Assembly (NCBI GenBank): GCA_003971905.1
Contig: RSEE01000053.1
Span: 434,001-474,824, forward strand
Source of the DNA: Moniliella sp. 'wahieum'
Lineage: Eukaryota
DNA: 40,824 bases
Direction: 5' to 3'
Under the pieces are notes generated by a model. It saw nothing but the letters and a program-made list of their open reading frames with translations. It was not told where the DNA came from and did not search any database. Within the stretch, counting starts at the first letter, position 1. Each line of letters starts with the position of its first letter. Shown here one piece after another: positions 18,678-40,718 of this stretch. Position numbers and translations under genes: made by a program.

Positions 18678-19120
18678 CCTTCTGTAACGAAATGTCCAGC
18701 CGACGCACAATCTGCACCACTCTTCCTTGGACTTGATTCCCATCTGGGAAAAGAAGGGGAAATGTGCTCTAATATGCGGCGTATAGGATATGGGCCCCAA
18801 GACAAGGCAAAGCCTGGAAGTATTGTCTTGGCAGCTTCCACAGCGTCATTATACTGGGGAATGGCCAAGTGTAAAGCGATACCGAACCACTAACATCTCG
18901 CACATAAATGAAAAGCGGGTACTGGTTTGATCCACGTCCTTGCCCCAGCGCTCAGATATTCTTGGTTATCACTTCGGTCTGCACACCAGTAGTCCAGGCC
19001 TGTAAGTCAGTACATCATACCAGAAAAACGTCTGGAGCTCATCGTACATGTGCGACCAATAGCGGGAACCACGACGCAGATATTCAGTCAGGCCGTGCAA
19101 ATGATCGTTTTCGGCTTTGG
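18678..19120 (-). repeat. Unidentified repeat family, block X copy (homologous to about 21611-22080 and 26873-27300)
   Basis: Shared anchors ttgattcccatct, ttggcagcttcca, taaatgaaaagcggg, catcataccaga, atcgtttt.ggcttt; minus-strand translations MYD..WYDVLT and PRWES..SGADCASAGHFVTE recur. Confidence 0.8.
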
Positions 19121-19606
19121 AATGATCGCATGCACTGCGGTTATTGCTAGCCGTCGACGCTCTTTGGTCGAAGGGGGTGAAGAGTTTGGCTCTCAAGCGG
19201 ATGGAGCTTTGCTAGCCTTCATATTCGTCAACCACCCCAGGAGTACCGTCGGTGTTGGTACCTGTGCTACCCTCTTCCGCAGCTCGTAAACAGCGTTCTC
19301 AGTGGACGCCAACGCGTATGCAAGAATCCAACCCGAGCATCGGATATGGGACCGATGCGTTTCGTCTCTTGCTCCGGGCACAGAGGAGGAACGCACTGCC
19401 AACACGGTTCGACGCATCAAGCTGCGCCACCGCGCTGGAAGGGTCACATATCCAGTCCCCATCACGGCAGATCCCCTAGGACCTCTTGGCGGCGAATGAT
19501 TTATTCAGGGGTGGTCGGATTCGGAGACGCCCGAGCGGCGAGATCGCTGCCATATGGGCCGTGCAGCCGCAAGGTGAATAGGCAAGCCAGCGGTTCCCGG
19601 GATGCG

Positions 19607-21431
19607 GCCGCAGTGACAATTCCCAAGTATTGAGCCGTACTCGCACGTAACGCCGCAGTGACAAGTTCCCCAAGATATTGAGCCGTAGACTCGCACGTAA
19701 CGCACAAGCAAGCACGGGAAGACAACTTAGATTTGGGTCAAAAATAGCAGGAGGCCATTAAGCTAGACCGTAGACCTACCGGCTTGCATCTCTCGTATAC
19801 GACTCGTGGCACACACGCGCTCGGGGGGGGGGGCAGTTTCTTGCCGGACAAGCAGAACGATGCAATTCGAGCGACAAGCTGGGTCCCCGCTCCAACGACG
19901 GCTGTCGTCGCGACAGCCGCTATCGTTGCATATGAACAAGGGCATGACGCAAGAACCGTTTCAGGACCTCCCCGGTGGGGCACGCGGCCCAACGGCACTG
20001 GTGGGGCGAGGGTGCGGGAAGGGGCAAAGAGGAAATGTGAATGACGAGGAGTGGCGAATGATGAGGGAGCGGCAAACCGGAGACGCGCCGCTGAAAGTTC
20101 GCTCCGACACAGCTTGAGTTCGGGTGGTCGACAGCCCAGCTGACTGGCAAGCTGGCAGCTACGGTCACATCAATCATCAATCTTCAATCGAGAGCGAGGT
20201 TCATTGACGCTGCTCACACCATCTGCATCATCTTCAAGGGTTCGAGATGCGGTCCCCTTCACCCCTGTATGGCCACGACCGGCCTCGACTCGTGCACGGG
20301 TGAACCCGGGAACTGCGGCTGGGCCGGCCTGCTCCGTCAGCAAATGCGTTTCTCTGCGCCGCGGCAACCTTTCGCCGCTGACCCCCATCTTCTTTCGTAG
20401 TGCCTGTGCGGAAGGCAGCCCACTGCGGCCGCTCGCCCTCTACACCCGTTTTTTGCGTCCGGAGTGACCCTGCACAACAGAACATATCAAACGGCTCTTG
20501 CTCCTCAGCAGGAACTTGGGGGCATTCCATGAAGGCACAGCATGCGGGGATGTGAAGCATGTCTTGCCTTGGCTAGTGGGCAGCAGTGCAGTGCCGATGG
20601 CCAAACGGAAGTTGCCGTATCGTCATACCCTCGATTGGCGCTTTGAACGACCGACTGGGGGGGTGTTGTCGTGATGAGTTGAAGGGCTGCATGATGCGTG
20701 CGACCCGATTGCCTCCAGTACTGCGTCTGACCAATCAGAAATATCAGCAACTTGGGCCACAGCAGAGGAATATGGACCACGTACAAGCATCGACATCCAC
20801 GCGAACAAAGTTGGCGCGCTCGGCCCATTCTGGATGGGTCATCCTCGAGAGGGGTGAGCGCCGCGACCAAGCACATCATGATAACAGCATTTCTTTTCAT
20901 CCCGATGGCCGCATACCACCATGCCGCTCTACATTTTCCGGGTGTGAGCGAGGCGATCTGCGGATGCGTATCTCCTTCTTCATCGACCCGGCGAGGCGGT
21001 ATAAGCTGGCAATGGATTGATCCACGTTTTTAATGGGCCCCAAGTTCTCTTGCAAAGGATGTCCATTGTGTTCATTGGGAACGGCCCCGTTCCACGTGGG
21101 CGGCAGATATCCGCACCTGTTTAGCGCACTGGTCAGCACATTACAGCACAGCAAGGCTTGGGTGGTTTCTTACATGATGAATGAATACTGGGTACATTGC
21201 GCCGGATGGAGACATGCACCAGTAACGGAGCGACGAGGTGCAACACCGCGTAACGGTGTGCCTTGATGGCAGCGTCAATCCTGTCTTGGCCGCACCATCA
21301 CCACGTGGGCAGGGACGATATGAGCCCAGTCTCATCAGGGGTACGAGCAGTTCCACTGCAATGGAAGGCACCATATCCCACCCCGCCTTACCAGTAGCGG
21401 GGGATAGAACTAACCGGGATGCCACCACTGT
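19607..21431 (-). repeat. Unidentified repeat family, block Z copy (homologous to about 29380-31420)
   Basis: Shared anchors ggccattaagc, gggcatgacgcaaga, catcaatcatcaat..tcgagagcgaggttcattgacgct, gcgtgcgacccgattgcctccagt, aatatggaccacgtacaagcatcgaca. Confidence 0.85.
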
Positions 21432-21610
21432 TGGCACCCGAAAGCCTAAGCCACCCATACCGGCTGGCAAGGAGAAAAGAGCTCTGTCCCACTTCTGACC
21501 GTCCTCATCGCTGGGGTCCGCTCCCCGGATTGCCTTCACCTCGCGCCAGAGCTGCTCGTCGATCTGGTGGAGTTGGTCCGCCAGGTCGTCCGTCTGCATC
21601 GAGCGGAGCA
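21432..21610 (-). mobile_element. Internal fragment of the CRE-like element (post-RT region), duplicate of 23656-23834
   Basis: LLRSMQTDDLADQLHQIDEQLWREVKAIRGADPSDEDGQKWDRALFSLPAGMGGLGFRVP is near-identical to the end of the RT ORF. Confidence 0.9.
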
Positions 21611-23655
21611 ATCGCCTTCTGTAACAGAGTGCCCAGTCGAGGCAAAATCTGCCCACTCTCCCTTCGACTTGATTCCCATCTGGGAGAAGATGGGGGGGTT
21701 ACTCTGATATGCAGTAGTAGGATATTGGCTCCGACGAGGCGGAGTTTGGAAGCATATGACTGGGCAGCTTCCAGAACGTCATCATGTTGAGGGATGGTCG
21801 TGTAAAGCGATGATGCCGAACCACTAACATTTCCCACGTAAATGAAAAGCGGGCCCTGGTTTGACCCATGTCCTTGCCGTAGTGCTCGGACACTCTTGAT
21901 CATCCATCTCCGTCTGCCTACCCGTGCCTGTACGTTCCGGCCTGCATAAGCGCGTCGATCAGTATATCATACCAGAGGAAGTGTGGGTGGGGATCGTCGT
22001 CGTACATGTAAAACAGTGGAAATAAGCATGACCTCGGTATTGAGTAGGGCCGTGCGCATGATCGTTTTTGGCTTTAACGCTGACGGTCGGCGGCAGCAAG
22101 TTTGAGGTGAGGAATGCGTTCGCCGTGTGAAAGGGATTGTGGATCGTGGAGGGTTTTGCGGTCTGCGAGGGGAGTGCGCCTGAGAAGAGCTTGGGCATGC
22201 TGCTGGAACCAGGCCAGACTTCGACCCATTCCATAAGTCTTGGGTGGGGACCAATGCGGTTTCCATGTTGTGGAACACCCAGCCACTCTGGGAAGGGAGG
22301 AACTGGCCGGTCAGTGCGGGGCAGCGGAGGCGTGGGGGTCACGAGTTGGGGATGGAAGAACAAAGGGAGGGGCAATCAGGCCACAGCCCTGCTCCGAGTG
22401 GCGGGCAAAAGGGGCGACGCGGAGGAGCCACTTTGGCACAACTCGGGTGAGGTGGTGGTCGCCAGTCCACTTGACCAACAAGCGCGTCCAGCGAGACAGT
22501 CACATCCATGATCAGTGTCGAATCAAGAGTGAGGCGCATCAACCCCGCCTCCATCCTCTTCAGAGATCCAGCGAGGGGGATGAAGAGCATCCGCACGTCC
22601 CCCGGACCTGCTATACCTACGCGCCCGTCCCGTAGCGCAGCAGCATCGAGCAGAGCAGGATCTGCTCTTCGCCAGCCATAGCGGCCTTCCCTGCTGGCGC
22701 ATCCGTAGGAGGCGGGAAGCGTGCCTTGCCTTGCCTTTGCCAATGGTGCTGCCTATGGCCAAAGTGCGCAGCGGAGGTACTCTCTCCTTGGGCGCTTTGC
22801 TCGACTGCTGAGGGACGTTGATGTGGCAACGGCTATACGAATGTGGGCGCTCCGACGGCGTCTGGACAATGCGAAATGTCAGCAACCTGGGCCACCGCAG
22901 AAGGATATCAACCACGTACAGGTATCCCCACCAACAAAGGTGGCGCGCTGGGCCCATCCTGGGCCGGTAAGCGCAAAGAGAGGCGAGCACCGCGGCCAAG
23001 CACATCTCGAAGGACAATCAGTAGCGGCACAACTTTTCATCCTGTTGGCCCCACCCCTCATGTCTGATCAACATTCCTTGGCTTACTTGGGCGAGGCGAT
23101 CTGCAGATGCGCTGCCCCTGCTTCATGGACCACATCATGGCAGAAGCTGGCAATGACTCACCCACGTCTTTATCTTGCACCTCAAGTTCTTGCAGCGCCT
23201 GTCGTTGTTTTCATCTGCAGCGCCCCCGGTCAATGTTGGGATGGGCCCTGGCAAACCAGCCCCGCCACCATCCGATGTTGTCGTTGCATGGCGGGGTGTT
23301 TAATCTGATGCGGGGAATGCCTCTGCAGAGAGCGGGGTGATCATTTGCTTATTCCATCGGCTATTCTCCATCCAGCGTATTCGCACCTGGTTAGCGCACT
23401 GGTCAGCACATTAGAGCACAGTAAGAAGGTTTCGGTGGTGGTGTACATGATAAATGAATAGTGGGTACATCGTGCATGACAATGTGAGCATTTGCACGTC
23501 TGGCACCTCGGCGTGACAGTAAGGCAGGAAGGAGGGCGGGGGCGAGAGAGGCGTGTCGGATGTAATCGCAAAAGAAACGGACCGATGAGATGCCGCACCA
23601 TGTCACGGTGTGCCTTGATTGGAGCGTCAATCCTTTTTTGGCCGCACCACCACCA
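21611..23655 (-). repeat. Unidentified repeat family copy (21611-22930 resembles 26873-28100; 22860-23655 resembles 20720-21300 and 30460-31260)
   Basis: Long shared strings such as gaggaatgcgttcgccgtgtgaaagggattgtggatcgtggagg and gtggtggtcgccagtccac; translation I(M/I)DVT.SLD.LVGQVDWRPPP.PSCAKV in both copies. Confidence 0.85.
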
Positions 23656-25666
23656 TGGCACCCGAAAGCTTAAGCCATCCATACGGGCTGGCAAGGAGAA
23701 AAGAGCCCTGTCCCACTTCTGACCGTCCTCCTCGCTCGGATCCGCCACCCTGATTGCCTTCACCTCGCGCCAGAGCTGCTCGTCGATCTGGTAGAGCTGG
23801 TCCGTCAGGTCGTCTGTCCTCATCGAGCGGAGCAGGTGCCGCAGGTTCTGCTGCAGAGCCACGCGCAACAAGAGCAAGCGGGCCTGCAGCGGCATCCCGT
23901 GCAAGGAGGTACAAAGCCGCCTGAGCCTCCACCTTTGCCTGCAGAAAAGCGAGCCGAGCTTTCCTGGGACCCACGCACGAGCCGAGGAAGGTGCCGCCCT
24001 CCAGACGCAACTTCTGCGTCGAGACAGTCTTCGTCTTGCTTGGGTTGAGTTCCAGCCCCGTCTTGCTCTGCGCCACGACACGCGAGACCAGCTGCAACGC
24101 ATTGGCATTGTGCGACAAGACATAAGTGTCGTCCAAATAGGACACCACCAGCCCATCCTCGCCCAACGCACGCTGCGCCTGCTCGAGCATACTGCGGATG
24201 CCACAGAGAAGAAGAAGGGCCCAAAGGGGTCGCCCTGCCTGACTCCCTGCTGGCTCAGGAGGGTTCCAAAGCCGCCGGCACCACCCAACACCAACTGGAT
24301 GTGCTTTCCATAAGCCCAACGAAAGAAAGGAAGGAGCTCGGACGAATAGCCACTCTCCGCCTGGGCCACCGCTGCCCGGTAGATCCAGTTGAACGCATTC
24401 TTAAAGTCCAACGACAGCACACAGTTGAACTTGGCCCAAGCCGGGTCCCTCTCTTCCCCACTAACCAAACGATCCATAAGCCGCACAATCGGCTCCACCC
24501 CGTCCTTGGACTTGACGCCCAACTGCGTGTGGAGCAGAGGAGTAGCCACATCCAAATGAAGAAGAAGTGCTTTGGCCATTACGCGGTAAAGTAGCTCACC
24601 ACAGGCGATCGGTCTCACTCCGCCGTCAGGGTTGGCAAGCGCCGTCAACCTACTGGTGCACAACAGCTGAGCACCCGGGCACGTCCCATGAAACATGGCA
24701 CATGCCATGGCTTTGAGAGCCGCTCTAAAGTCATCGTGCTTTAAAGCCAACTGGAGAAGAGGAACCGACCATCCGCCCACGCCTCCCCCCCGTCCCGGGA
24801 GAAGCTGCTTTCATCCAACTCCAAAACCAGGCTCACCGGCGTCCGCCGCTGCGGTGTCGCCTGTTAAACCAGGCGGGGCCCGCTCCGACATTTCCAAACC
24901 AGCCAGTGGGTTCTTCGGGCCTGCAGGCGCTTTGCACCCAGGGCCTCAACCGTTCCCGGTCCAAAACCCCACCGCCGCATCCTGGGGATGCAACGTGCGC
25001 GCCGCACGCCCCAGCATTCCCTCTTTGACCTGGCGGTGTGCACAGGTCAAATCATCGGAACGCTGGCGCTCTGCAGAGCCCTTCTCCATAGCTGGCGGCC
25101 AAGCCACCTCCGAATAGGCCTTGAGCGTGGCACAAACGTCGGCCGAAGAGCCCCCCGCAAGCCCGCCTTCGGCAGGGCAAGCAGGTTGAACACGGCAAAA
25201 TCGTCGGGATGATAACTCTTCCCAATCGACCGGCCGCCTCCTTGAACCACGCCGTACCATTGTGCTGCCCGGCGGCGAGGGCACAGCGCACTCCACCACT
25301 CGAATGGATCCGAATTGGAACTGCCGGGTTGTCCGCTTCGGCTGCCAGATTAGGCTGAGCTCAGCCGACATCGACTGCCTGGCTTGGGGCGTGCGCGCCT
25401 GAGCTGTTGGTGTTACGCTAGTTCCCACCGGCCTCGTTCACCGCGCATCACGGAAGGGGACACATGATTCGCCACGACCTCCAGGCGGCGTGCAAGGCTG
25501 AGGAGAATGTGGCGGTGGAAAGGTAGAGAAGGAATACGTTTTCCATTGCCCGCCCCATCTCCATTCAAGAGTGCCTTGGACACATTTGTGGCCAAACTAG
25601 CGTACGCAGCCCAGAACGTTCTGCGGATACACATCTTGCTCGTCTTGCATTCTTGGGCAGCCAAAG
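23656..25666 (-). mobile_element. CRE-clade (Cnl1/MoTeR-like) non-LTR retrotransposon: 5' region and reverse transcriptase, truncated before the CCHC/RLE domain
   Basis: FNLLALPKAGL, AHRQVKEGMLGRAARTL, GWSVPLLQLAL, SRLTALANPDGGVRPIACGELLYRVMAKAL, QLGV, LDFKNAFN, FFRWAYG, GVRQGDPFGPFFFS, SYLDDTYV (24128-24139), GLELNPSKT, FLGSCVG, LFSLPARMDGL. Confidence 0.9.
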
Positions 25667-25726
25667 CACCGCGAATGCATAGTCTGGCTCCTAGGCTGTG
25701 GTTTTGCAACGTGGTCGGCAGGGAAA
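25667..25726 (-). pseudogene. Degenerate 28S rRNA fragment (putative retrotransposon target-site duplication)
   Basis: 25690-25726 matches 28S 38414-38450 at 31 of 37 positions (22 of 23 in cctaggctgtggttttgcaacgt); a weaker, mostly transition-type match continues to about 25667. Confidence 0.8.
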
Positions 25727-26195
25727 TCAAGCAAGCACCTTGATACATGTCTTACAGGGGTAGCGCGGTTGGATGGGGTGCCCCTTATACCTTAGCTCTC
25801 ACAGCGGCAGTGTAACCACGGGAGGAGTCACCCGCAGGAAGACCAAGGGAACAGAGCTAGGCACCCGTTGCACAAAAGGATTGTACGTTGGTGCTTTGCT
25901 TTGGCCTCCGCGTCGAACAAGGTGTTCATCTCCTTACACAGCGCGTGTGCCTGAGGGACGGCGGCGAGCGGATGGCAAATACGACGTAGAATAGACGTTG
26001 CGCGTCTTGTCTCCAAAGGACGAAGGGGTCAGGCTTGGATATGGATGGGCTCTTTGGAGCACCTGCGTTTGCCATCGCGATCTCAGCGCGGGTGACAGTG
26101 GCGTAGGAGCGCCCGACTCACTGCGGGTTGTTGAATGGCTCGGGCTCTACCATAGTGCCCGGAATGTCCCGCAACCCCGTCATGACCCCGTGGCC
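25727..26195 (-). mobile_element. Degenerate 3' end of a CRE-like element: RLE endonuclease region plus ~58-nt 3' UTR
   Basis: Stitched: GLRDIPGTMVEPEPF..RAEIAM..LTPSSFGDK..LCKEMNTLFDAEAKAKH..YNPFV..VPLVF..AAVRAKV* (stop 25785-25787). The order and motifs resemble recalled Cnl1-type RLE C-termini. Confidence 0.6.
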
Positions 26196-29100
26196 AGGAA
26201 ATGTGAACGCTGGATTTGAGGGCACCACCGACCCCCAGCTGGGATTGAGCGCTTCTGCTTTCTCGATCAGCCAGGAGCCGAGCGATGTAGTCACAGCAGG
26301 CAGCAGCTTCGTATGCTGGCGGGCGAGCAAAACCGTCGTCTTTTTCTTGTGCCAGGACGAGGAGTGGGATCGAATTCCTCTGGTTGGCTGCCGATCACCT
26401 GGTCCACCCATACGTTCGCCTCGCTGCCCAAGTTGATGCGTTGGCCTGTGGAGCAAAGCCAAGAGGAAAGAGCAAAAGTGATCTGCCCAAAGCGACGGGC
26501 ATCAGGATGCCAACTTGGTCCTACCATTGACCGACCACATTGCCCCGATCGTCGCCCCGGATGACTTGCCTCGTGCCATTGCTGCTCACCTACCCACGGG
26601 AGTTTGGCCCGTGCCAGATTCGTTTCTCCCCGCCTCGAGCGAAACAGATGGTGGAGGGGTTGCTGCAAGCGCGAACCGCAAAATGAACAACCCGTGGGGC
26701 AACGGAGGGATTTCAGGCAGAGGTAGCGAGCGGTTTGATCCACATTCTTGGCCTGCAGAACATCAGTCAGGTGATACTAGTCCCAATGCTGAAGCCCACG
26801 ATCTTGGCACGTTGCGTTTGCACATCTTGTACGCTGCGTTTTGGAACCTTTTCTTGCTCGGACCCTTTGCCTCGATCACGTTCTGTGACGAAATGTCCAG
26901 CCGACGCACAATCTGCCCCACTCTCCCTTGGATTTGATTCCCATCTAGGAGAGGGGGAGAAAGTCCTCTAATATGCAGCAGGATAGTAGCGCTAAGACGA
27001 GGCGGAGCCTGGAAGCATATGACTTGGCAGCTTCCAAAGAACCGCTAACATCTTCGACATAAATGAAAAGCGGGTAGCGGTTTGATCCATGTCCTTGCCC
27101 TAGTTCTCGGACACTCTTGATGGTCCATCCCCGTCTGCATACCCGTGCCTGTACGTTCGGGCCTGCACAAGCGCGTCGGTCAGTACATTATACCAGAGGA
27201 AGTGGGGGTGGGGATCGTCGTCGTACATGTAAAACAGTAAGAGAATCATGACCCCGGTATTGAGTAGGGCCGTGAAGATCATCGTTTTTGGCTTTAGTAT
27301 GAAATGCGCTGATGGTCGGCGGCAGCAAGCATGAGGCGAGGAATGCGTTCGCCGTGTGAAAGGGATTGTGGATCGTGGAGGTCTTTGCGGTCTGTGCCGG
27401 GAGTGCGTCTGAGAAGAGCTTGGACCTGCTGCTGGAACCAGGCCGGGCCCATTCCATAAGTCTTGGGTGGGGATCAATGCGCTTCCATGTTGAGGAACGC
27501 CCAGCCACTGTGGGAGATGAGCTGGGCGGAGTGTGGGGGCAGCGGAGTGTGGGGCCGCGAGTTGGGGAAGGGAGAACACAGGGAGACGCAATGGGGCCAC
27601 AGCCCTGCTACGAGCGGCGAACAAAAGGGGCGAGGTGGAGGATTCACTTTGGCACAGCTCGGGTTAGGTGGTGGTCGCCAGTCCACCTGACCAACAAGCG
27701 TGTCCAGCGAGGCAGTCACATCAATGATCAGTACCAATCGAGAGTGAGGCTCATACTATCCATCGTCTCCATCCTCTCAGAATCCAACGAGGGAATTAAG
27801 AGCAGCCGCGCCCGCCCCCCCGGGCCGGTTCTACGCACCCGTCCCGCGACACAGCAGCATCGAGCAGCATCGTCTTTGCCAGCTGTGGAGGCGTTCACTG
27901 CCGGCGCATCCGCAAGGGGCGGGAAGCGTGCCCTGCTTTTGCCAATATTCCCTGCATCTGCACCTTGCACAACTGGCTGGGGGGATATCGACGCGAGAGT
28001 TAAGGGCTACTGGAGTACGCGCACAGTGCCTCTGCAGCGGCGTCCAGCTAATGGGAAATGTCAGCAACTTGGGCTCCAGCAGAAGGGTATGAACACGTAC
28101 AGGAATCGCCACCATCGAAGTCACAGTACCCCATGGGTGGGCCGCCTCCAAGTATATTTGCATTCCACCACTGCACATCGTGTCGACCTCGGTAACGCAA
28201 CCGCCTTCTCGCAGCCAGTTCGGGTGTTGCATCGACAAGGATGGACAGCAAAAAGTGGTGCCCAGGGGCGTGCCCCCCCCCGTGAGCACGCATCCGGCTT
28301 GGCGGGTAGCGAGAGATGATGAAGCAAGGACACGAGGCATAGCAGAGTCCCAGCATGTTGGTCGTGGAGAGGCAAACCGGTCCCAAACGCAGCCAGGCTA
28401 GAATTGGCGCGGGGCTAGGCTTGGGCGGTATGGCCGCGGCCGAGGTGGAGGAACTTCTGCGCGCCAAGCGCGGCGGCAAACGCACGTTAAAATTAACCCC
28501 GCGACGGGAGCAGCTCTTTCTGCACGTCTCGCGCAAGAAGGTCGAGTGCGGTTGCTTGCGGGGCTGCTCGGCATGCGTCCGCTGCCGCCGGAGCAGCCCT
28601 GCAGACTTGCACTGCAACAGGGAGCGCTGCCGACGGCGGCAAGGCACCCGCCGTGCTGGCCAGGCACAGCTCGCTTCCACGCAGGCCTGGTGCACAGCTG
28701 CTGAAGCAGGCGCGTGGAGCGCGTCGGACACTGGTTGCGCACGTCTCTTGCGGCCCAAAGCCCAACCCGCACCTTCCGTACAACATAGGGGAGAGCAGTG
28801 CGCGCACTTGCCTTGCGAGGGCAGCTGCCCATCGTCAAGCAGAGCAGTGCTGGCACTTTCACCGCGTACGCGTCGATTCAGCCAGTTTCTTTGGGCAAGC
28901 ACTTTCGTCCCAGTTGCTGCTGGTACTGTGTTTGGTCTGTGGTTGTCAGTACCTCGCACCACAAGAGTACAATAGAGCAGGGGCAACGTACCATCACCAC
29001 AATGGGAACCAGCAAGCTTCGTCAAAACGATTGTGCACACCAAGTGTTCCAGATAAACCGCCCATATCGACAGCAGGTAATCTTATCGTTGGTAACAGCA

Positions 29101-32100
29101 GCGACCTCGCGCCACATTTGAAGGGCATGGACAAGGTGTACAGTACTGCACGCAAACAGTACCAGGGCCTCATGAAGCTGCGCCGCCGCACTGGAAGAAT
29201 AGCGGAACCAGTCCCCAACATTGCAGCCGCTACGCGGCCATTTGATGGCGAATGAGCGAATGATGCCCCTTGAGCGGTGGGGTTCAGAGGCGTCTGTGTA
29301 GTGGGATCGCTGCGATATATACCGGGCAGCCCCAAGGAATGAATGGACATGTTTGGGTCTCCCGGGATGCAGTGTCAGCAACGAATTCCCCAAGATGATG
29401 CGCCTTAGATGTGCACGTAAGGCACGAGCAAGCACGAGCAAGCACGAGCAAGACAGCTTAGATCACTTGGGACAAAAATAGTCAGACGGCCATTAAGCCA
29501 GACCAGGTTGACGGGATGGCATACCCGCCGCCTTGCTTCTCTTGGCTAGGACCTGCGGTACACATGCGCTCGCTGGGACACTGATTGTTGCGGGACAGGT
29601 GGAACGAGACAATTCGAGCGACTAACTGGGCCGCTGCTCCAACGACGGCTGTCGCGATGACAACCGCTATCTTTGCAAGCACAAGGGCATGACGCAAGAG
29701 CCGTACCAGGAGCTCGTCGTGTGGGTACCTGGCCCAGCAGGGGTTGAGGGTGGGGGGGGGGGAACGAGGAAATGTAATTGATGAGGTAGTGGCGAATGAT
29801 CAGGGAGTGGTAGACAGAAGAGCGACGCTGATATTTCGCTCCGACACGGCCCTGATTCGGGGGTGGTCGACAGCCCACCCGACCGGCGAGCGCGGCGAGC
29901 GAAGCGTCGCATCAATCATCAATATTCGATCGAGAGCGAGGTTCATTGACGCTAACCACACCGTCATCCTCTTCAGGGGTTCGAGATGCGGCGCCCTTCA
30001 TCCCCCTGCATGGCCACGACGAGCCTGGTCTCGTCCACGTGTAAGCCAGGGAACTGCGACTGGGCCGGCCTGCTCGGTCAACAAACGTACTCTCTGGCAA
30101 CAGCTAAGCCTGTCGCCGCCGACCCCCATCTTCTTTCGAAGTGCTGTGACTGTGCAGAAGGCAGCCCGCGGCGGCCGCTCGCCCCCATACCCGTTTTCTG
30201 TGTCCGGAATGGCCCAGCACAACAGAACAGCATCGAACAGCACTTGCTCGTCGTTGGCAACTTGGGGCCTTCCGTTAAGGCACAACTGCGGGGCTGTGAA
30301 GCATGCCTTGCCTTGGCTTGTGGTGCAGCGCAGATGGGCAACAGGGAAGTGGCGTATCGGCATACCCTCAATTGGTGCTTTGAACGACTGGCTGGGGGGC
30401 GTTGACGTGACGAGTTGGAGGGCTGCATGACGCGTGCGACCCGATTGCCTCCAGTGCTGGGCCTGACCAATGAGAAATGTCAGCAACTTGGGCCATAACA
30501 GAAGAATATGGACCACGTACAAGCATCGACACCGACACCAACGAAGGTGGCGTGCTGTGCCTATCCTGGCCAATCACCAGAGAAGTGTGCGCCGCGACTA
30601 GGTACATCCTGAGGGGCGATCATAGTAGCACAGCTCCTCCTTTTGTTGGTCTCACATCACCATGCTGCCCCCATTCCTCAAGCGTGAGTGAGGCCATCTC
30701 CGGATGCGCGTCTCCTTCATCGACACGTCTCAGTATGCGCTGGCCATGGTTCGACCCACGTCGTTATAATAGACCCCAAGCTCTCTTGCAAAGCGTGCCC
30801 ATTGTGTTCATTGGGAGCGCCCCCGGTCCACGTAGGCGGCGGGACCTGGCAGCCCCCCCGCTACCACCCGAAGTTGTCGCTGCTTGGCGGGGTGATGAAT
30901 CTGGTGCGGAGGCGATACCTCTGCAGATGGTGGGTAGATCATTTTCTTGTTTCCATCGGCATTCGGCTCCGGCAAGCATATTTGTACCTGTTTAGTGCGC
31001 CGGTCAGTACATCACTGCAGAGTAAGGCATGGGTGCTTTCGTACCAGAAAACACATAGTCGGTAGAGCGGTACCAGCGCCGCGCAAGACAGCGAAAAAGG
31101 ATTCGCACGTCTAGCATCCGGCGTGGCCGTAAGGCCGAAAGGAAGGCGGTGGCGCGATAGGCTTTTGCGGATGTAAACGCAACAGAAGCAGAACGACGAG
31201 ATGCCACACCCGTCACAGTGTACCTTGACGGAAGCGTAACCCCGTCTTGGTCGCAACACCGCCATGGAGGACATGAGCGATAAGAGCCCAGCCTCGTTCG
31301 TCGATGGAGGAAGCAGTGGGACGAGCAGCCTCACAGCAATGGAGGGCCCCATATCCAACCCCACGTTACCAGTGCAACTGCTGGCAAAAATACCGGATTG
31401 TCGTCATTATTAGCACCCGCGTTCCAAAGGTAAGCCCATACCCATGGCAAGAATACTCCAAAGGTTGATGTGGCAAAAACTTGGTGCTTCACGCCACTCC
31501 GACAAGCCCAAACGCACGCACAGCTACTCAGAGGCAAGGGTTCCACTTCTTCTGGGCACGCCAGTTGCCACCAAGCCAATTTGTGGCAAATGGTTGTTCT
31601 TGGGAGCCCAAGCACGGCCGATTTGGGGAGAAAACTAAAATCGATACAAGCAGATTGTCGGCGCTCCATCGGGGAGTGAGCTTGGCGCGCTGCCGGTGGC
31701 CAATGTGGAAAACAACGCAAATGGGAGGGCGGCAAATACGAGCAAATGAATCATCTGCGAGTGGTGTTGCGTTTGGTTGGGGCGCTGCTGGCTCTGAGAG
31801 GTGTGCGTGATGCATGTTGCTGACCAGCAAAGGGAAGTGGACGATCCCTACTGCTGCCCTCGTTGCCACCACACGCACAATCCAGTTGTCAGTACCTCAA
31901 GGGTGGGCCGCCTTCAGGTTGATTTGCATTCCGCCACGCATCGTGTCGACCGCGCTTTGAGCAGAAGCAGCCGAATCGGGAAGGACACGAGCCACGGTTG
32001 CACAGAAGGCCAGGTTCGTCGTACCGATGACTCGCGATGGGAGGGTGAGGGAACAGCGCGCCTTGCTCGGCCTGCTGCTGGAGTCAGTCGCCTAGGCCTT

Positions 32101-33600
32101 CGTCCCAGCCGCCGCCACAAGGCCCTCTGCCTGCATCGGGAGCTGCATGGACAAGGATGGGCAGCAAGAAGCGGAGGCAAGGGGCGCCATGAGCAACGCA
32201 TCCGTCTTGGTGTCAGCGAGAAAAGAAGAAGCTAGGACACGAGCTGCAGCAGCGGCTCCAAGTGCTGGTTGGTGGTGCACAAGCAAAACCGCCCCGACGC
32301 GACGAGATTAAATTCAGCGCGGTGCTAGGGTTGTAGGCGGTGGCCGCAGCCAATGTGGATGAATTGCAACAGCGTGGGCGCGCCAACCGACGCGGCGGCC
32401 ACACGCGACGACGCAACGCTCGCCGCGAGACCGACGGCCCAGCGCTGTGCCGAGAGGGGCACCCGCACCCATATCGGCACCACACTCCCGCCACTGGCGC
32501 TTCGCCGCGCGCGGCTTTCCGGCCCACGTACCCGCTCCTTGGCTGGCCCGTCCTTACCTGGCCACGAACCAACCTAAGCTGCCGATTCTTGGGGACAGCA
32601 GTAGGCGTTTGCCACGCTCGGCAGCAAAGCGAACCACGCAAGCGGCGCCTTGTCTACCGACCCGCCCATCCGACACGCAGCGCGCCTTTTGGTGTGCATC
32701 CTGCCTCCCCTCGCGTCTCGTCCCCCCCTCACGCCTCCACCGCCGTCGTCCCCGTTGTCCCCGCCGCAGCAGCCATTGGGCTACCCCCTTGGCCGTTGTC
32801 CCGCCCAGCACCATGCTCTGCAGCTGCTTCGCGTCGAGGCCATGTCCATGGCGTTGCCCTGCGAGCTGCTCCTCGGACTCCGAGGGCGCCGAGCGCCGAG
32901 GCGGTCGATTGTTGTTGTTCGTCGGGGTGCTCGCTGTGTGTCGCCTAACATCTCTCGTTGCGGCCAAGAAAAACTACCAACCTAGTCTCTCCCTTTCGCA
33001 CGAGCAGCAGCCGCTCCAGACCCGCACTGCAGCCGGAAGCGCTGCAGACGGCGTTAAAGGCGTCCGCCATGTTGCCCAGAAGCAGCTGGCTATCCCGTAG
33101 GGGCAGCGCCCGGCCGCTAAAAGACCCGGATGCAGGTCCGACACCCCCTTCGCACGTCCCTGCCCGGCCAAATGGCAATGAGGATCGTCCGAGTAGACCC
33201 CACCGAAGGGGGAGTGGAGCGGGTACTTTTTTGCCAGTGCAGCTGCCCATCGTCAAGTGGGGCAGTGCGTCCATGGCCACCGCGTACCCTCGTATGCCTG
33301 GAAAAGGGGTATTGATCCAGGCAGGTTCCTCGTTGCTTGAGTACGCGCGTCCCAGTTGCTTATGGTGCGGTGTTTGATCTGCTTTGGTTGTTAGTAACTT
33401 GGACTGTACAAGAGAATGTAGGTAACGTACCGCCATCACAACCTGGGCCAGCAGGGCAGCGACAGTCATAAACCGAACACCAGTGCCGATGGCAGCCTTG
33501 CCACGCCCTGATATCCCGTCAAGAGGAACATTCGTAGCTGGAGCAAGGTAGAAGAGCGGCAAGGGATGAACCACTGAGGTGCTCGTCAACACTGAACCAT
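26196..33600 (-). repeat. Two further mosaic copies of the unidentified repeat family (28120-29010 resembles 31890-33450; other blocks as above)
   Basis: Shared anchors gggtgggccgcct..atttgcattcc..catcgtgtcgacc, gacaaggatgg, gcagctgcccatcgtcaag, cgtcccagttgct; plus the matches to blocks X and Z listed above. Confidence 0.75.
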
Positions 33601-33639
33601 GCATAGTGGTCCAGTCAAAGGAGGCAACTCTATCATTCA

Positions 33640-35137
33640 AGGGGCTGCTCCTTCGCGGGGTGGGCAGCGCCTTCCATGGCAACAACTTGGCGGTCCAGTC
33701 CTCGGCATCTTGCGAAGCTTGGTCAAACTGTTAACGCAAAGTGAATCCAGTAAGTATATCATCCCCTCCGGTTCTTTCTCTAGTGGGGCTGCGCCACGAC
33801 CCTGAAAAGACCATGATCGTATACGTACGTTCTTGGCCGCCAGATACGCCAGTTGGTCCTCCGTATCATTCCAGTTGTTGTAACACGTTGTGGTCCCCGC
33901 CCCCCCGTGGTGTGCTGACCAAGACGGGTTGAGGTACAACATTGAGATCAACAGTGTATCGGGTAAAGAGCGTGCATCATCTTGCGCAGTTGTGAGAGTT
34001 GGGATGGTGCCTCATCTGCTCATGAGACATGTGCGGGTTAGCACCTCTTCCTCCTCGCGCTCTCTCTCTCTCTTTCACCCCTTTCGTCGCACCTGTTACC
34101 GCGGCGGGGTGCCAGAAGGAAGAAGAGCATCAACGGATGGACGTCATCGAACGTACCGATACAGTCGAGCCAGGACAGCCACTGTGGCACAGATTGTGGT
34201 TTTGATCGTGCTTCTTGAGATCATCCAAAGTCGCCAGGGCTGGGGAGAGCCGTTCGTCCAACCACTGCCGATTCGGGGCATAGTCATCGGCACTCAGTTG
34301 CGTCCTTCCAGACAGAGCTGGGCCAGGGCGGTATGAGGGCCGATGGGGACTCATAAAAGGGCTGCAGCGGCTACTTGCCACCACTTTCATGCCAGAGTCG
34401 CTCCTACGCAGTGGCAAACCGTTTCTTGGCGGGTTGCAGATAGATAGGCCGGCGAGAGACAGTAGCGAGACAATAACATCGAGGGTCGCGTTGGTCGGCG
34501 CCTATTGATACTGACTCGTATGTGATGTTCCACAAGGGCATCCCCGCTAGCATGGTGCCCCAGGCGACGTTGGTTAACATGGCACTGTTGTATCCCCTTT
34601 GACCCGGATCACTTGACGCGACCGGGTTTCCCAGTCAGGCTCGTCAGTTCCCCCCAGGATAGGCAGTGGGTTGTCGAGCAGGGCGGGGACCATGATGTGG
34701 TAGTGGTCACGAGGGAAGAATCCGCTATAGTAAGAGAGAGAGGAAAACACGTCAGGATCGACACGTTTGCGGTGGTGTGAGGCAAGGGCGTTTTAAGGGG
34801 ATACGCCAGAGTCGGCACGTACTGGGCAAACAGGATGGCCGAAAGGCCCACCTTAAGAACGACAAATGGCATATGCCCGGTGCGTGGAGCCGTATGCTGG
34901 GCCTGGGGGGGGGGAGGGCAACGCAGAGTAGACGCGGGTGGTGAGCAGAATAGAAGCAGGAGGGAGGCGGGATGTGCATGCAGACGTATGTCCAACGCTG
35001 CAACAACGCACCTGCTTAGTAGTGGCGTTTACTGTGGTGGCAGTGTTGGTGGACGTGACGAGCTTGGTGGAGGAGCGACGTGTGAGAGCGTGTGTGGCGA
35101 TGGCTAGCATGGTGCCCCAGGCGACGTTGGTGAACAT
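33640..35137 (-). pseudogene. Spliced host-type gene remnant; its distal part may be a 2OG-Fe(II) oxygenase (PHD/SM-20-like)
   Basis: ATG at 35137 (MFTNVAWGTMLA). Introns 34903-35011 (GTGCGT..GCTCAC..CAG), 34725-34851 (GTGGGC..CTGAC..TAG) and about 34016-34092 (GTGCGA..GCTAAC..CAG); the 51-nt exon between the first two is in phase. Motifs WLDERLSPALATLDDL and ISMLYLNPSWSAHHGG are present, but no intact HxD was seen. Confidence 0.35.
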
Positions 35138-35146
35138 GGCACTGTT
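34546..35146. repeat. 44-bp direct repeat (34546-34589 and 35103-35146, one mismatch)
   Basis: gctagcatggtgccccaggcgacgttggt(t/g)aacatggcactgtt occurs twice, separated by 513 bp. Confidence 0.9.
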
Positions 35147-35248
35147 TTCTTTGCACTGGGAAGGAGCTTCGCCAGGGGCTAGACGGGGGGGGGGGTAGAC
35201 CAGAGGCCGCCTCGAGCACGCCCTCGCCCCGAGCTGCCCCCCTCGCCC

Positions 35249-35866
35249 TCATTGTCGGCCTCCTCGCCCTCCGATCCACCCCCCTCGCTTCCCACACCCG
35301 TTCCCTCCTTCCTTGCCCGACTCCAGCCCATCGCCGGATCCACCAGGCAAGGGGACCAAGGCCGCCTCGGCAACGACAGCCCTGCGCGCAAAGACAGCGT
35401 TGAGCGCTGCCCTCCGCGTCGACCGGCGCACCGGCCCCATTGACGTCCCACGACCACGATCGTCCCTGTCGCGGGCCTCGCTGGCGTCTTGACCGCCGCC
35501 AAAAGACTCCCCCTCCGACTCGGAGGGGGTAGTAAACACGACCACGTTCATTTCCAGATGAACCACGCGCGCTTGTCCGGGACGCATCCAACGCAGCAGC
35601 CGCTGCTGCCACTCCGATTCGCTCCGGCCCGTTCGCCACGACGTCTTCTGCGCTGCACTCGACTTGCTCAGGGGTACCCCTTTCTTGCGAGCAATCGCCC
35701 TGATCTATGCATCAATCAGGTCTTGGCATTGGCCGCGTCGGTGGCCGGGGATGCGGCACAGGCCGCACTTCTTGCCCCCAGTCGCCGCTTGTTGGCAGAC
35801 CGCTGCCGTATGCCCAAAGCGGGAGGACCGCTCGCATTGTCGAGGGCGCATCGTCGTCGTACAAAC
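35249..35866 (-). mobile_element. 5' end of a retroelement: ORF with two CCHC zinc knuckles, directly after a 28S fragment
   Basis: ATG 35851: MRPRQCERSSRFGHTAAVC (degenerate knuckle) then CGLCRIPGHRRGQC (canonical CX2CX4HX4C). There is one in-frame TAG at 35705-35707, after which the same frame stays open to 35249. Confidence 0.65.
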
Positions 35867-35936
35867 CTTCGTGCCCCGCCGTATTAGCCTAGCCCAATCC
35901 CTAGGCTGTGGTTTCGCAACGTAGTAGATAGGGACA
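35867..35936 (-). pseudogene. 70-nt 28S rRNA fragment (putative retrotransposon target-site duplication)
   Basis: 35898-35936 is identical over 39 nt to 28S 38412-38450; the whole 70 nt aligns to 38382-38450 with 6 mismatches and 1 gap. Confidence 0.95.
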
Positions 35937-36310
35937 AGTGCATCCCGCAAGGCATATCATATCTTCACATTGGACAGTTAGCGATGAGCAAGCGAAGCAA
36001 TAGTGGTGACTTACTAGTTACTCCAAGCAGGGTATGCGTTCAGCTGATGAGTAAGCTGGCGTTCCGTATGTCGTTGCGCTCCTCAGCTTACGCGCTTCGC
36101 CCGCACACAAATGGCAATTGGAAGGGGAAGACTGTGTTGTGGGAGGGGGCGAATGGCCCAGGGAAATGAGCACCGGATGGGACGGATCGAACGTGGCTCT
36201 GCGCGCCCGATGCCGTGCATGGCCCGGCATTGGTCACGTCGCGGAGCTCATCCGACAGAGTTAACACGCATGCTGAAGGCGGTGGTCAGGGCGATGCTTT
36301 GGCATACGTG
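35937..36310 (-). mobile_element. Degenerate 3' end of a CRE-like element: RLE C-terminus plus ~146-nt 3' UTR
   Basis: Stitched: LSDELRDVTNA..ARHRARRATFDPSHPVLISLG..IAICVRAKRVS* (stop 36083-36085). HPVLISLG resembles the RLE F.P++S.GG motif, and the VRAK ending is shared with the copy at 25727-26195. Confidence 0.5.
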
Positions 36311-36867: not shown

Positions 36868-36873
36868 AAAAAG
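36868..36873 (-). terminator. RNA polymerase III terminator (oligo-T) of the 5S gene
   Basis: CTTTTT directly follows the 5S 3' end on the minus strand. Confidence 0.75.
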
Positions 36874-36991
36874 AACCGCGGCACCGAGGATTCCCACGTG
36901 GTCCCCCACCGTAGTACTGACTGGGCGATACTGTGGTTAACTTCGCAGATCGGACGGGATGCGGTGCTTTCACAGTTCTATGGCCGCGGAT
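36874..36991 (-). rRNA. 5S rRNA (118 nt, basidiomycete type), same orientation as 28S
   Basis: ATCCGCGGCCATAGAACTGTGAAAGCACCGCATCCCGTCCGATCTGCGAAGTTAACC..AGTACTACGGTGGGGGACCACGTGGGAATCCTCGGTGCCGCGGTT; the terminal stem pairs. Confidence 0.97.
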
Positions 36992-37036
36992 GCTGGTGTA
37001 GCCTGGAGGGGGGGGTATGGGGGGGGCGTATATTGA

Positions 37037-37440: not shown

Positions 37441-37443
37441 GGG

Positions 37444-37814
37444 AATCAGAGGTGCCGAGATGGGCTTCAGCCGATCGTGGGAACAAGCCCACTCTACGCG
37501 TACGGCGCTCGGACCATGCCCCGTCGTATGCGGGGGATTTGCAGTGTGCAATGAGTGTATATTGTGGGGCGTGTGGTGGGGCGTCGCCCCGCCACAGGAC
37601 CCCCCCGTGGTGTACGGCTTGCGCCTATTGGTACCCAGTCCAGCGCACATGCGAGCGTACTAGCACGAGTTCCACCTTAGAGGCGTTCAGGTGTTACTCG
37701 GCGGGCGCGGCTGCGCACCTCTGCCCGGTCGGACAGGTGCTCAACTGGAGGCCCGGCCCCGGTGTTCCTCTCGTACTCGCCGGAACTACTGTCGACTCGC
37801 TTGTTACGGTAGGA

Positions 37815-37861
<47 letters not shown>

Positions 37862-37904
37862 ATTGGTGGGTGAACAATCCAACGCTTGCCGAATTTGCTA
37901 CGGC

Positions 37905-37939
<35 letters not shown>

Positions 37940-38490
37940 AACGTCGCTATGAACGCTTGGCTGCCACAAGCCAGTTTATCCCGGGGTGCATTTTCTGGCA
38001 CCTCCTGCTCCAAAAGCCGGAGAACAAAAGGATCGATAGGCCACACTTTCATGGTTTGCATCCACACTGAAGAGTAAATCAAGGCAGCATTTCCCCTTTT
38101 GGTCTACTGGAGATTTCTGTTCTCCATGAGCTGCCCTTGGGACACCTGCGTTATTGTTTAACAGATGTGCCGCCCCAGCCAAACTCCCCACCTGACAATG
38201 TCTTCAGGAAGGGTTGTCAACCGACGTAATTCCAAAAGGTGCGAGTCTCCTCGCAGGCCCACCTCACTGAATAAGTAAAGAGACGATAATAGTGGTATTT
38301 CACACTGGCGCTTGCGCTCCCACTTATCCTACACCCCCTATGTCTCTTCACAATGTCAAACTAGAGTCAGCTCAACAGGGTCTTCTTGCCCGCCGTAGAT
38401 GCCTAGCCCGTTCCCTAGGCTGTGGTTTCGCAACGTAGTAGATAGGGACAGTGGAGTCTCGTTAATCCATTCATGCGCGTCACGAATTAA

Positions 38491-38537
<47 letters not shown>

Positions 38538-38567
38538 TTTACCCGCGCTTGGTTGAATCTCTTCACT

Positions 38568-38601
<34 letters not shown>

Positions 38602-40718
38602 CGTCAACACCACGTTATGGCCATCGCAATGCTATGTTTAATTAGACAGTCAGATTCCCGCGTCCGTACCAGTTCCAAGTCGCTTGTTCAGCGCACCTTT
38701 CGGACCGCGCCGCAGCGCGCCGCCCAGCCGCCAGGAGCTTGCGCCCCCGGCAGCCCAGGCCGCCCACCCGCACGCCCGGCCAGCACCCAAGCCTTGGAGC
38801 CAATCCTTCTCCCAAAGTTAGGATCAAATTTGCCGACTTCCCTTACCTACGTTCTCGTTTCAACTAGAGGCTCTTCACCTTGGAGACCTGCTGCGGTGAT
38901 CAGTACGACCGGGCGAGAGACTAGACACGCACCAGGATTTTCACGGGCCGTCGAGCACACACCAGATGCCAGCGTAGCGCCAGCACTCTTCCCACGCCCT
39001 GCACCGTCTCTCCGGATAACCCGATTCCACGGCGCATTCTCAGCATGGTTAAGCAGAAAAGAAAACTTTCCTGGGGTACTCGCAGCGTCTCCTGGCTTGC
39101 TTGCGTTACCGCTCAATACATCCTCATCGGCGACGGAATCTTAACCGTCTTCCCTTTCCCGAACCACACCCCCAAAAGGGTGCTATGGATCAGCATCAGC
39201 CTTCGGTTAGGATCGGCTCACCCATGTCCAACTGCTGTTACCATGGAACCTTTCTCCACTTCAGTCTTCAAGGTTACTCGCTTGAATATTTGCTACTGCC
39301 CCAAGATCTGCACCAGGGGCCGTTCCACGCAGGCTCACGCCCACGCTCGGCACAAAACCCCCGCGCCTGCCTACTCTTTCGCACAACTCTGGCACGAAAG
39401 GTGGTATGGAGACACGCTTCAGCGCCATCCTTTCAGGCTAGTACATTCGTTGGTGAGTTGTTACACACTCCTTAGCGGATTCCGACTTCCATGCCACCGT
39501 CCAACTGTCTAGATGTACCAACACCTTTTGTGGTGTCTCATGAGCGTGTACTCTGGCTCCTTAACCACACGATCGGTTCATCCCGCATCGCCAGTTCTGC
39601 TTACCAAAAATGGCCCACTAGAAACTCACATTCAACGCACAAGCTCAACCAACAGCAAGTGCTTCTTACGCATTTAAAGTTTGAGAATAGGTTAAGAACA
39701 TTTCGTCCCAAGGCCTCTAATCATTCGCTTTACCTCATAAAATTGTTCTCACACGAGCTTCTGCTATCCTGAGGGAAACTTCGGCAGGAACCAGCTACTA
39801 GATGGTTCGATTAGTCTTTCGCCCCTTTGCCCAGCTCAAACGATCGATTTGCACGTCAGAACCGCGACGGACCTCCACCAGGGTTTCCCCTGCTTCATCC
39901 TAGCCAGGCAAAGTTCACCATCTTTCGGGTCCCAACAGGTATGCTCTTGCTCAGACCCATCTTGTGCGCACACGCAGGGCCGGCCGGTACTGCACCCGGG
40001 TTCGTACCCACATCACTTTCATTTCGCACGCCGGGTTTGCCACCCACATACTCGCATACATGTTAGACTCCTTGGTCCGTGTTTCAAGACGGGCCGCGGA
40101 AGCCATTAAGCCCATGTCCACCACACGGCAGTCCTCGGTCGTCCGCAGGGCATCCACAGCGCGGCTATAACACTCCCCCCAAAGGGAAAGCCACCTTCCG
40201 CGCCGCTTCTCCCCCACACACAACCGACATGGGCCCACGCCGCCACAGTACACCCCCCCGAGAGGGGCAGACGCGGCCGCCGCTCCGGCACTGACTTCCA
40301 ACGCTTCCCTTTGGCAATTTCACGTACTCTTTAACTCTCTTTCCAAAGGCTTTTCATCTTTCCCTCCACGGTACTTGTTTCGCTATCGGCTCTCCCCCAT
40401 ATTTAGCCTTGGATGGCCTTTACCACCCTCTTTGCGCTGCATTCCCAAACAACGCGACTCGTCGAGCGCACCCCACAACACGGCACCAGGCCAGACCAAG
40501 CACGGGATTCTCACCCTCTCTGTGCTGCTTTCCCAGCAGACTTGGGTCCAGCCGCACCGCACGAGGCACGTCTCCAGTTACAATGCGCCCGCAAGGGAGC
40601 TTTCAAATCGGGCTCATCCCGCTTTCGCTCGCCGCTACTAGGGGAATCCATGTTTGTTTCTCTTCCTCCGCTTATGATATGCTTAAGTTCAGCGGGTAGT
40701 CCTATGATTGATGTCGAT
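37444..40718 (-). rRNA. Large-subunit (25S/28S) rRNA, full length, no insertion at the R1 or R2 sites, divergent sequence
   Basis: Reverse complement contains ACCCGCTGAACTTAAGC, CCGTCTTGAAACACGGACCAAGGAG, TTCCCTCAGGATAG, CTCTTAAGGTAGCCAAATGCC, GAGTTTGGCTGGGGCGGCAC, GAACGTGAGCTGGGTTTAGACCGTCGTGAGACAGG and the sarcin-ricin loop AGTACGAGAGGAAC. Ends are approximate. Confidence 0.98.

Follow-up and report, generated by a model that had tools for sequence, protein, structure and literature searches.

Candidate footprint of telomere-type CRE-group retrotransposon insertion at the R1 site of 28S rDNA in Moniliella

In the fungus Moniliella sp. 'wahieum', two short pieces of the 28S ribosomal RNA (rRNA) gene lie within a nest of decayed remnants of retrotransposons that lack long terminal repeats (non-LTR retrotransposons) at the edge of ribosomal DNA (rDNA), and both begin at, or within 2 nt of, the nucleotide at which the insect R1 endonuclease nicks 28S. 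They are found in a 40,824-nt stretch of contig RSEE01000053.1 (assembly GCA_003971905.1, positions 434,001 to 474,824 of the forward strand), hereafter the window, whose own coordinates are used below. One piece, fragment A, is directly followed by an element copy encoding a reverse transcriptase (RT) of a basidiomycete family related to CNL1 and MoTeR; the other, fragment B, lies some 10 kb away. We consider it plausible, with a probability of about one half, that they are a footprint left by a telomere-type element of the CRE group on inserting into 28S.

Results

28S pieces inside a retrotransposon nest

Exact copies of the 14-mer TGTCCCTATCTACT occur in the window only at 35936-35923, where fragment B starts, and at 38450-38437, within the intact 28S gene nearby (Table 1); with up to one mismatch allowed there were 2 matches, against 0.00 expected. 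Fragment B aligns locally with this gene at a score of 111 (shuffles, 16.4 +/- 2.9), and outside its start the identity falls abruptly, from 90-100% to 11/24 in the 24 upstream positions. The more decayed fragment A was aligned by BLAST over 25724-25690 with 38448-38414 (30/35), and by local alignment over 25724-25675 with 38448-38399 (39/50, counted by hand from the match line of the alignment), the score of 56 comparing with shuffles of 16.5 +/- 3.3 and a shuffle maximum of 30. A scan for 28S-likeness in 736 segments (1-37000, both strands) recovered these two fragments only, A as the second best, with the next score at 33 and the 99th percentile at 31. The fragments also align with each other (52, shuffles 15.4 +/- 2.5), and both start no more than 2 nt from 28S position 38450; the common start ascribed to them by the first-pass annotation of this DNA is thus exact at 38450 for B, but only to within 2 nt for A, the weaker of the two.

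As had been noticed earlier, both fragments carry the ACGTTGC variant of the organism's own 28S, and were thus derived from it. The intact gene reads ACGTTGC at 38436-38430, where the insect sequence has ATCTAGC (PMC1919474) in an otherwise highly conserved stretch. No A-run stands ahead of either fragment, in agreement with the previous statement that neither locus has poly(A). Rfam searches at E <= 1 over 17000-36900 gave no further rDNA piece (no ribozyme and no extra rRNA), and nhmmer of rDNA against the nest returned fragment B as its sole match.

The R1Bm endonuclease has its cut sites (exclamation marks) at ACA!GTG on the bottom strand and at ACT!ATC on the top one, and the size markers published with it spell the same 14-mer (PMC1919474). 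In the intact 28S, ACA!GTG maps to the 38451/38450 boundary; the start of the 14-mer, which had been placed at the R1 site from the outset, indeed equals the R1Bm bottom-strand nick (PMC1919474), and an R1-type 3' junction, with this nick directly ahead of TGTCCCTATCTACT, is exact at B and present to within 2 nt at A. Moreover, the 28S of 3,276 nt has the form CCCT[AG]T at just two sites, 38447 and 38380, and these are the two edges of fragment B, which spans from 3 nt ahead of the first to 1-2 nt ahead of the second. Near-matches of that form to the telomeric C-strand unit are found nowhere else in the gene, and the pair shares its strand with the telomere tracts of the element's relatives. 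This coincidence suggests a telomere-motif-directed enzyme that acted on 28S, leaving a 69-bp duplication or leader.

A telomere-associated family

The RT is encoded by the open reading frame (ORF) 24810-23344 and an overlapping frame (Pfam RVT_1). With a family profile of 1059 positions, built from a MAFFT alignment of 74 full-length relatives, hmmsearch recovered the copy in pieces with independent E-values of 8.7e-82, 1.4e-29 and 2.8e-21. Fragment A and profile position 212 are separated by 455 nt that showed no profile match (17/60 shuffles reached the score); relatives carry an N-terminal C2H2 finger (consensus CPxC...H....H), and in the window the element's ORF is split by two frameshifts. 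Of the RT-bearing copy previously drawn from 25666 to 23656, the RT is real, but the element does not reach 23656 intact: homology ends abruptly at profile position 725 (23665), where an unrelated repeat takes over.

A library search with the RT returned 3660 proteins at E <= 1e-3, the best of them 44-48% identical and ~900-1250 amino acids (aa) long, with named relatives in Tilletia, Cryptococcus neoformans and Filobasidium. The C. neoformans proteins, 47% identical over 96% of the RT query, are probably CNL1, judging from organism and architecture. All 15 relatives scanned have RVT_1 and lack an apurinic/apyrimidinic (AP) endonuclease domain. Among 30 aligned relatives, C836, C839, H847, C851, H862, E884 and D895 are invariant, and the resulting C-terminal array, C-X2-C-X7-H-X3-C ... 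RH ... E ... D, fits the restriction-enzyme-like (REL) consensus C-X2-C-X6-8-H-X3-4-C ... RH(D/N) ... E ... (R/K)(P/A)D ... D/E given for MoTeR, FoTeR, SLACS and CRE (PMC12857005); the same source groups the Cnl1/MoTeR-like lineage with SLACS/CRE/CZAR. The nearest solved structures are R2 proteins (E 1.1e-33, two matched stretches).

In a FastTree phylogeny of 211 RT rows (midpoint-rooted, without named outgroup families, rows with fewer than 300 of 385 columns dropped), the window's RT stands next to Tilletia (sister support 0.53; 0.956 one node up), within a 103-tip clade with support 0.98 that also holds C. neoformans, Filobasidium and telomere-flanked loci. Pfam searches of 96 ORFs of at least 100 aa and of 68 minus-strand ORFs found RVT_1 on one RT copy only, and no Exo_endo_phos. 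The RT belongs to the basidiomycete Cnl1/MoTeR-like lineage with a restriction-like endonuclease (RLE), within the CRE group of the R2 superfamily; members of the family encode, in a single ORF of ~1000 aa, a zinc finger at the N-terminus, an RT with YLDD and, at the C-terminus, a CCHC together with the RLE. The label of a CRE-clade RLE element, given at first sight, is reasonable for the family by its relatives' motifs and the tree, but in the window the RLE domain itself is undetectable above shuffles.

Where the relatives insert was read from 79 metagenome loci encoding them. At least three telomere-like units were present at element ends in 9/79 loci, in every case on the sense strand and never on the opposite one. 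In the window's own large clade, 4/5 loci terminate, 140-300 nt past the stop codon, in clear units of the CCCTAA or CCCCTAA type, and the contig of the fifth ends 43 nt past the stop codon. These telomeric ends match the published targets of CNL1, MoTeR and FoTeR. Neither 28S-, 5S- or spacer-like DNA (0/79 loci) nor the 14-mer TGTCCCTATCTACT (0/79) was found at them. Some relatives (the 3' flanks of loci L001, L003 and L007) end in CCCCTAA- rather than CCCTAA-type units; the terminal tract of L003 includes a CCCTAT unit, and L011 has internal repeats with CCCTAAA-like units.

In the window, the separators are 28S pieces and not telomere repeats, with the 28S CCCTAT in the same orientation as the relatives' tracts; no tandem telomere repeat was found there, only one lone CCCTAA. 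The earlier proposal that a CRE lineage has converged on the R1 site is supported by the fragment start, which is the R1 nick, but not by the relatives, which are telomeric and at none of the 79 loci in 28S. Use of the R1 site may be off-target use of the telomere-like CCCTAT, by analogy with CNL1, for which an off-target insertion in FRR1 at the telomere-seed-like CACCCCT is reported (PMC12810828).

Sequences on either side of the fragments

At locus A, an element 3' region, the 28S piece and an element 5' region follow one another on one strand. Upstream of the fragment, 26357-26169 corresponds to profile positions 754-816 (hmmsearch E 1.5e-3; 0/280 and 0/60 shuffles reached it), and the remaining 443 nt hold motif-like remnants that appear by eye in the right order, the stretch falling ~300 nt below the length of an intact C-terminus. 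Of the final ~200 profile positions, which hold the CCHC and RLE motifs, nothing was recovered above shuffles (25/298 and 16/100). Thus, of the element C-terminus once recognized here, 26357-26169 is family-like, the RLE part is undetectable, and the RLE-like end with 'VRAK' comes down to a resemblance by eye. Traits of an array are present, namely the head-to-tail order at A, a truncated RT-end fragment at 21617-21426, and the lack of an A-run ahead of the fragments. A head-to-tail array had been proposed for both loci; B is not tied to the family, and because the family is detectable on neither side of B, only locus A links it to 28S.

Upstream of fragment B, 36420-35937 resembled the family C-terminus no more than shuffles did, these reaching its score in 41/298, 132/287, 28/60 and 12/100 trials, and the reading of this stretch as an element C-terminus is not supported. 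Since the window holds no second spacer copy, it may simply be plain rDNA spacer. Downstream, the reported zinc-knuckle ORF exists, with an S replacing the second C of its first knuckle. Such a CCHC knuckle was found in 0/213 proteins compared, which marks the ORF as foreign to the family, and the 2.4 kb downstream of B gave no match to the family profile (5/60 and 9/20 shuffles reached the score); a family element is thus undetectable on either side of B. Downstream of the CCHC ORF there is also a 44-bp direct repeat (34546-34589 and 35103-35146, 97.7% identical), its copies spaced 557 bp from each other. Decayed knuckles common to the N-termini at A and B were considered and set aside as a resemblance by eye, the DNA being unalignable.

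The fragments stand directly 5' of an ORF start (at B the ATG follows within ~16 nt, and at A it lies in the fragment's tail), as would be expected if the RT, having reached the 5' end of its template, had jumped to 28S rRNA and gone on for ~69 nt until a strong stop halted it. The 28S piece would then be an addition to the 5' end of elements that could insert at any site, and 28S DNA would never have been a target. Template-switch chimeras of long interspersed nuclear element (LINE) RTs with cellular RNAs are established, and such an origin would also suit a nest without surrounding 28S flanks and a B-upstream stretch that is possibly ordinary spacer. It would, however, need both the switch point and the stop to be identical on two occasions, at a 28S position for which we know of no hard-stop modification, and would not account for the coincidences with R1's nick in DNA and with the pair of CCCT[AG]T motifs; we therefore judge an RNA chimera improbable.

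Rearrangement and setting of the nest

The nest (~18.6-36.4 kb) is a dead, rearranged collection of non-LTR retrotransposon pieces. Besides the RT copy, it holds two repeats, Y and Z, in which, as in the region downstream of B, the 68 minus-strand ORFs gave no Pfam domain. An older piece of the same family lies inside Y (22882-22703, profile 233-292; frameshift-tolerant alignment 29.3, shuffle maximum 16.8, 0/30), and by nhmmer the end of Y resembles an RT stretch. Two other identities for Y were rejected: the missing RLE half, by the family-profile search, and dead 28S or spacer, since the Y profile matched nothing in rDNA at E <= 100, for which reason the weak 28S-like scores within Y (33 and 30) were also dismissed as chance. 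Y copies end at 21611, 26875 and 18673 in ...ACAGAAGG(C)GAT, with no poly(A) and no terminal repeat.

Three Y copies stop at this same point before three different flanks, the common endpoint being perhaps a shared breakpoint, perhaps a true element end, and the junction of RT (profile 725) with Y is found twice; together, these observations imply that segmental duplication shaped the nest. They lend weight to the alternative that a single chance insertion of a telomere-type element into a 28S copy, or a single capture of a 28S piece, was later duplicated and rearranged locally, in which case A and B would have inherited their start and no preference for 28S would exist. An arbitrary endpoint shared by three Y copies, locus A pieces that are complementary parts of one disrupted copy, and relatives that are telomeric and never in 28S (0/79) all agree with it. 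Against it, A and B have flanks that do not align (24, shuffles 27.2 +/- 3.8; 32, shuffles 29.8 +/- 4.5) while the fragments themselves align, evidence against one junction having simply been copied as a segment, whereas other duplicates in the nest, of 64-79% identity, were readily found. The first-pass annotation had named precisely this origin as one that would overturn its proposal, and the flanks speak against a plain copy. A single event would also leave unexplained why the edges fall at the only two CCCT[AG]T and the start at the R1 nick, and on balance we find it rather unlikely.

The window has a G+C content of 61%. Its left 17 kb hold ordinary genes with introns, which encode guanylate kinase, FGAR amidotransferase (ADE6) and a threonine-aldolase-type lyase, and the nest of 18 kb is placed between these housekeeping genes and the last rDNA unit. 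For the ADE6 piece, the best named relatives come from Tilletiaria, Tilletia, Violaceomyces and Malassezia (33-48% identity), and the best named matches of both ADE6 and the RT are thus Ustilaginomycotina and other basidiomycetes, which bears out the earlier assignment of the host to the fungi. The neighbouring 28S is, as previously described, uninserted, being a complete gene by Rfam (40716-37441, minus strand). A 752-codon open frame without a Pfam match (8402-10657, plus strand) has short imperfect internal repeats clustered at 8466-8688 (78-91% identical). The spacer round the 5S gene (36300-37440) has many C-runs and short AACCCTA or CCCTAG(G) motifs, with no tandem telomere repeat. The 5S-like fragment at 18226-18312 has the orientation of the live 5S and flanks unlike those of the live gene.

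This position at an array boundary, the decayed 5S-like piece and the heavy rearrangement of the region would be in keeping with fragments that remain from dead 28S genes, cut back by deletions at the edge of the array, near which elements merely gathered, the fragments' start being a coincidence or a fragile site. That two independent deletions would end no more than 2 nt apart in a 3.3-kb gene is unlikely (by our own estimate, of the order of 1e-3), no other 28S, 18S or 5.8S remnant was found in the nest, and identity drops abruptly at the fragment start (90-100% to 11/24); we regard this origin as very improbable.

Table 1. Positions of the 28S fragments, element remnants, repeats and rRNA genes in the window
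Feature	Position	Strand	Basis or remark
28S fragment B	35867..35936	-	Matches 38450-38382; 90% over 70 columns, E 4.9e-19, exact 14-mer
28S fragment A, decayed	25667..25726	-	Supported core 25675-25724
Putative target segment in live 28S	38375..38450	-	Starts TGTCCCTAT, CCCTAT at 38447-38442; ends just before CCCTGT at 38380-38375
Element copy with RT	23665..25666	-	Profile 212-725 on 25211-23665, two frameshifts; Pfam RVT_1; tblastn of five full-length relatives
Decayed 3' region of Cnl1/MoTeR-like element, upstream of A	25727..26357	-	Statistical support for 26357-26169 only
Stretch upstream of B, read earlier as element C-terminus	35937..36310	-	No family likeness beyond shuffles; no self-match in window
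48-codon ATG ORF with two CCHC (CX2CX4HX4C-type) knuckles, 16 nt past fragment B	35705..35851	-	Translation
Second RT-end fragment, profile 663-725	21426..21617	-	90% identical to 23647-23834
Repeat Y copies 1 (23658-21611) and 3 (21395-18673), mosaic	18673..23658	-	Self-BLAST, nhmmer with Y profile
Repeat Y copies 2 (28120-26875) and 4 (31373-29103); repeat Z (29014-28124; 33453-31890)	26875..33453	-	Self-BLAST, nhmmer with Y profile
Live 28S (large subunit, LSU) rRNA gene, no insertion	37441..40716	-	Rfam LSU_rRNA_eukarya, 2561 bits, model positions 1-3401
5S rRNA gene, 450 bp downstream of 28S, same strand as 28S	36873..36991	-	Rfam 5S_rRNA, 111.6 bits
5S-like fragment at the nest's far edge, beside the housekeeping genes	18226..18312	-	Self-BLAST E 3.5e-8; 76% identical to live 5S

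Discussion

The reading that we favour, insertion into 28S by a telomere-type element, would run as follows. The family usually enters telomere repeats, with the C-strand (CCCTAA) on the sense strand of the element, and some members would also have entered a 28S gene at its only two telomere-like hexamers. A bottom-strand nick beside CCCTAT, the same as the R1 nick, would prime reverse transcription, the other end of the event would lie beside CCCTGT, 69 bp downstream, and the 69-bp segment 38450-38382 would be left between consecutive elements. This segment may have arisen as a long target-site duplication; just as well, it may be a leader of 28S sequence carried at its 5' end by RNA from an element at the second motif. 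Further rounds of insertion, or unequal exchange, would then produce the order element, 69 bp, element, and deletions, segmental duplications and point decay would subsequently have erased the outer 28S flanks and most of the coding capacity. In this scheme we infer, rather than observe, where the nicks fell, whether the segment is a duplication or a leader, the status of B as a second independent event, and any dedicated specificity for 28S.

Recurrent site-directed insertion is favoured by the start common to within 2 nt, the unalignable flanks of A and B despite alignable fragments, the motif pattern, and the identity with the R1 nick. A bolder version, in which a Cnl1/MoTeR-like lineage has turned into a dedicated 28S-specific element, its RLE reading the two CCCT[AG]T, nicking at the R1 nucleotide and leaving the 69-bp duplication or leader, is possible but doubtful.

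Several observations weigh against insertion into 28S. The relatives are telomeric, and none of their loci lies in rDNA. No 28S was seen on the outer sides of the nest (Rfam at E <= 1, 17000-36900), and the adjacent 28S is without an insertion. At locus A, the CCHC and RLE end of the family is not recovered above shuffles, and the element pieces are nearly complementary (profile 754 to the end, then 1-725), an arrangement compatible with tandem duplication of one already disrupted copy. At locus B, the upstream stretch may be spacer, the knuckle ORF is foreign to the family, and the downstream region does not match it. The nest bears the marks of segmental duplication, and every element copy in it is dead. 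Furthermore, the coincidence of the motifs with the edges of fragment B was spotted post hoc, which makes it a lead and not a test, and the duplications of CNL1 measure 0-13 bp (PMC12810828), as opposed to 69 here.

CNL1 is the closest named lineage of the RT, within the same clade of 0.98 support, and it resembles the present family in its single ORF, its head-to-tail arrays, which in CNL1 are subtelomeric, and its 5' truncation (PMC12810828). It is flanked by telomere repeats, whereas the separator in the window is a 60-70-bp 28S piece. MoTeR1 of Magnaporthe oryzae and FoTeR of Fusarium oxysporum likewise have an N-terminal C2H2 finger, an RT and a C-terminal REL with the same order of REL motifs (PMC12857005); their insertions lie in telomere tracts, TAACCC being found on the 3' side, and they form arrays at chromosome ends that include the rDNA telomere (PMC12857005, PMC7367193). 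These, however, are ascomycete lineages that target telomere repeats and not 28S, and their likeness is one of described architecture. In M. oryzae, the link to rDNA is a telomere joined downstream of the 26S gene, with no insertion within the gene.

The 3' junction of element with TGTCCCTATCTACT is identical to that of R1 (PMC1919474), and the orientation relative to 28S is the same. R1 nevertheless differs in having an AP-type endonuclease N-terminal to the RT, a 14-bp duplication and an RT of a different clade: no AP-type endonuclease was found in the 96 + 68 window ORFs or in the 15 relatives, and instead of 14 bp, 70 nt of 28S is retained at B and ~50-60 nt at A. R2, whose proteins are the nearest solved structures, is an RLE-type element that targets 28S, with small deletions or duplications at its insertions. 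The R2 site lies in TAAGGTAGCCAAATGCC, at ~38515-38497 here and ~60-70 nt upstream of the fragment start; the fragments begin at 38450 and not at TAAGGTAGC/CAAATGCC near 38500-38515. R8 and R9 (R2 clade) and SLACS/CRE (CRE clade) are also RLE-bearing and site-specific and make target-site duplications, 126 bp long in R9 and 49 bp in SLACS, but in other hosts (rotifer, hydra, trypanosomatids) and at other sites. All known CRE and R4 elements, as well as R8 and R9, make such duplications, and that of R9 in 28S is described as 'exceptionally long' (PMC3636483).

No fungal 28S-specific non-LTR element was found in our literature searches, which did not extend to Repbase, Dfam or supplements, and the fungal rows examined in the table of a 2024 review of rDNA transposable elements list spacer-located elements only (PMC10946416). 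If real, the case presented here would be a new target variant of a known family and not a new kind of element, and, if it holds true, the first rDNA-specific non-LTR element reported in fungi. The insect R1 and TRAS elements form a pair with 28S and telomere targets, respectively, within one clade, and a 28S-specific lineage would be the fungal, RLE-based parallel to it. It would also offer a natural two-motif substrate for studying how an RLE places its first- and second-strand cuts, which is relevant to the retargeting of R2-type elements. Should the fragments be a mere off-target footprint, they would exemplify rDNA array edges as graveyards of telomere-type elements; if insertion at the R1 site is true, they would show how targets can shift between telomere repeats and rDNA via a short shared motif.

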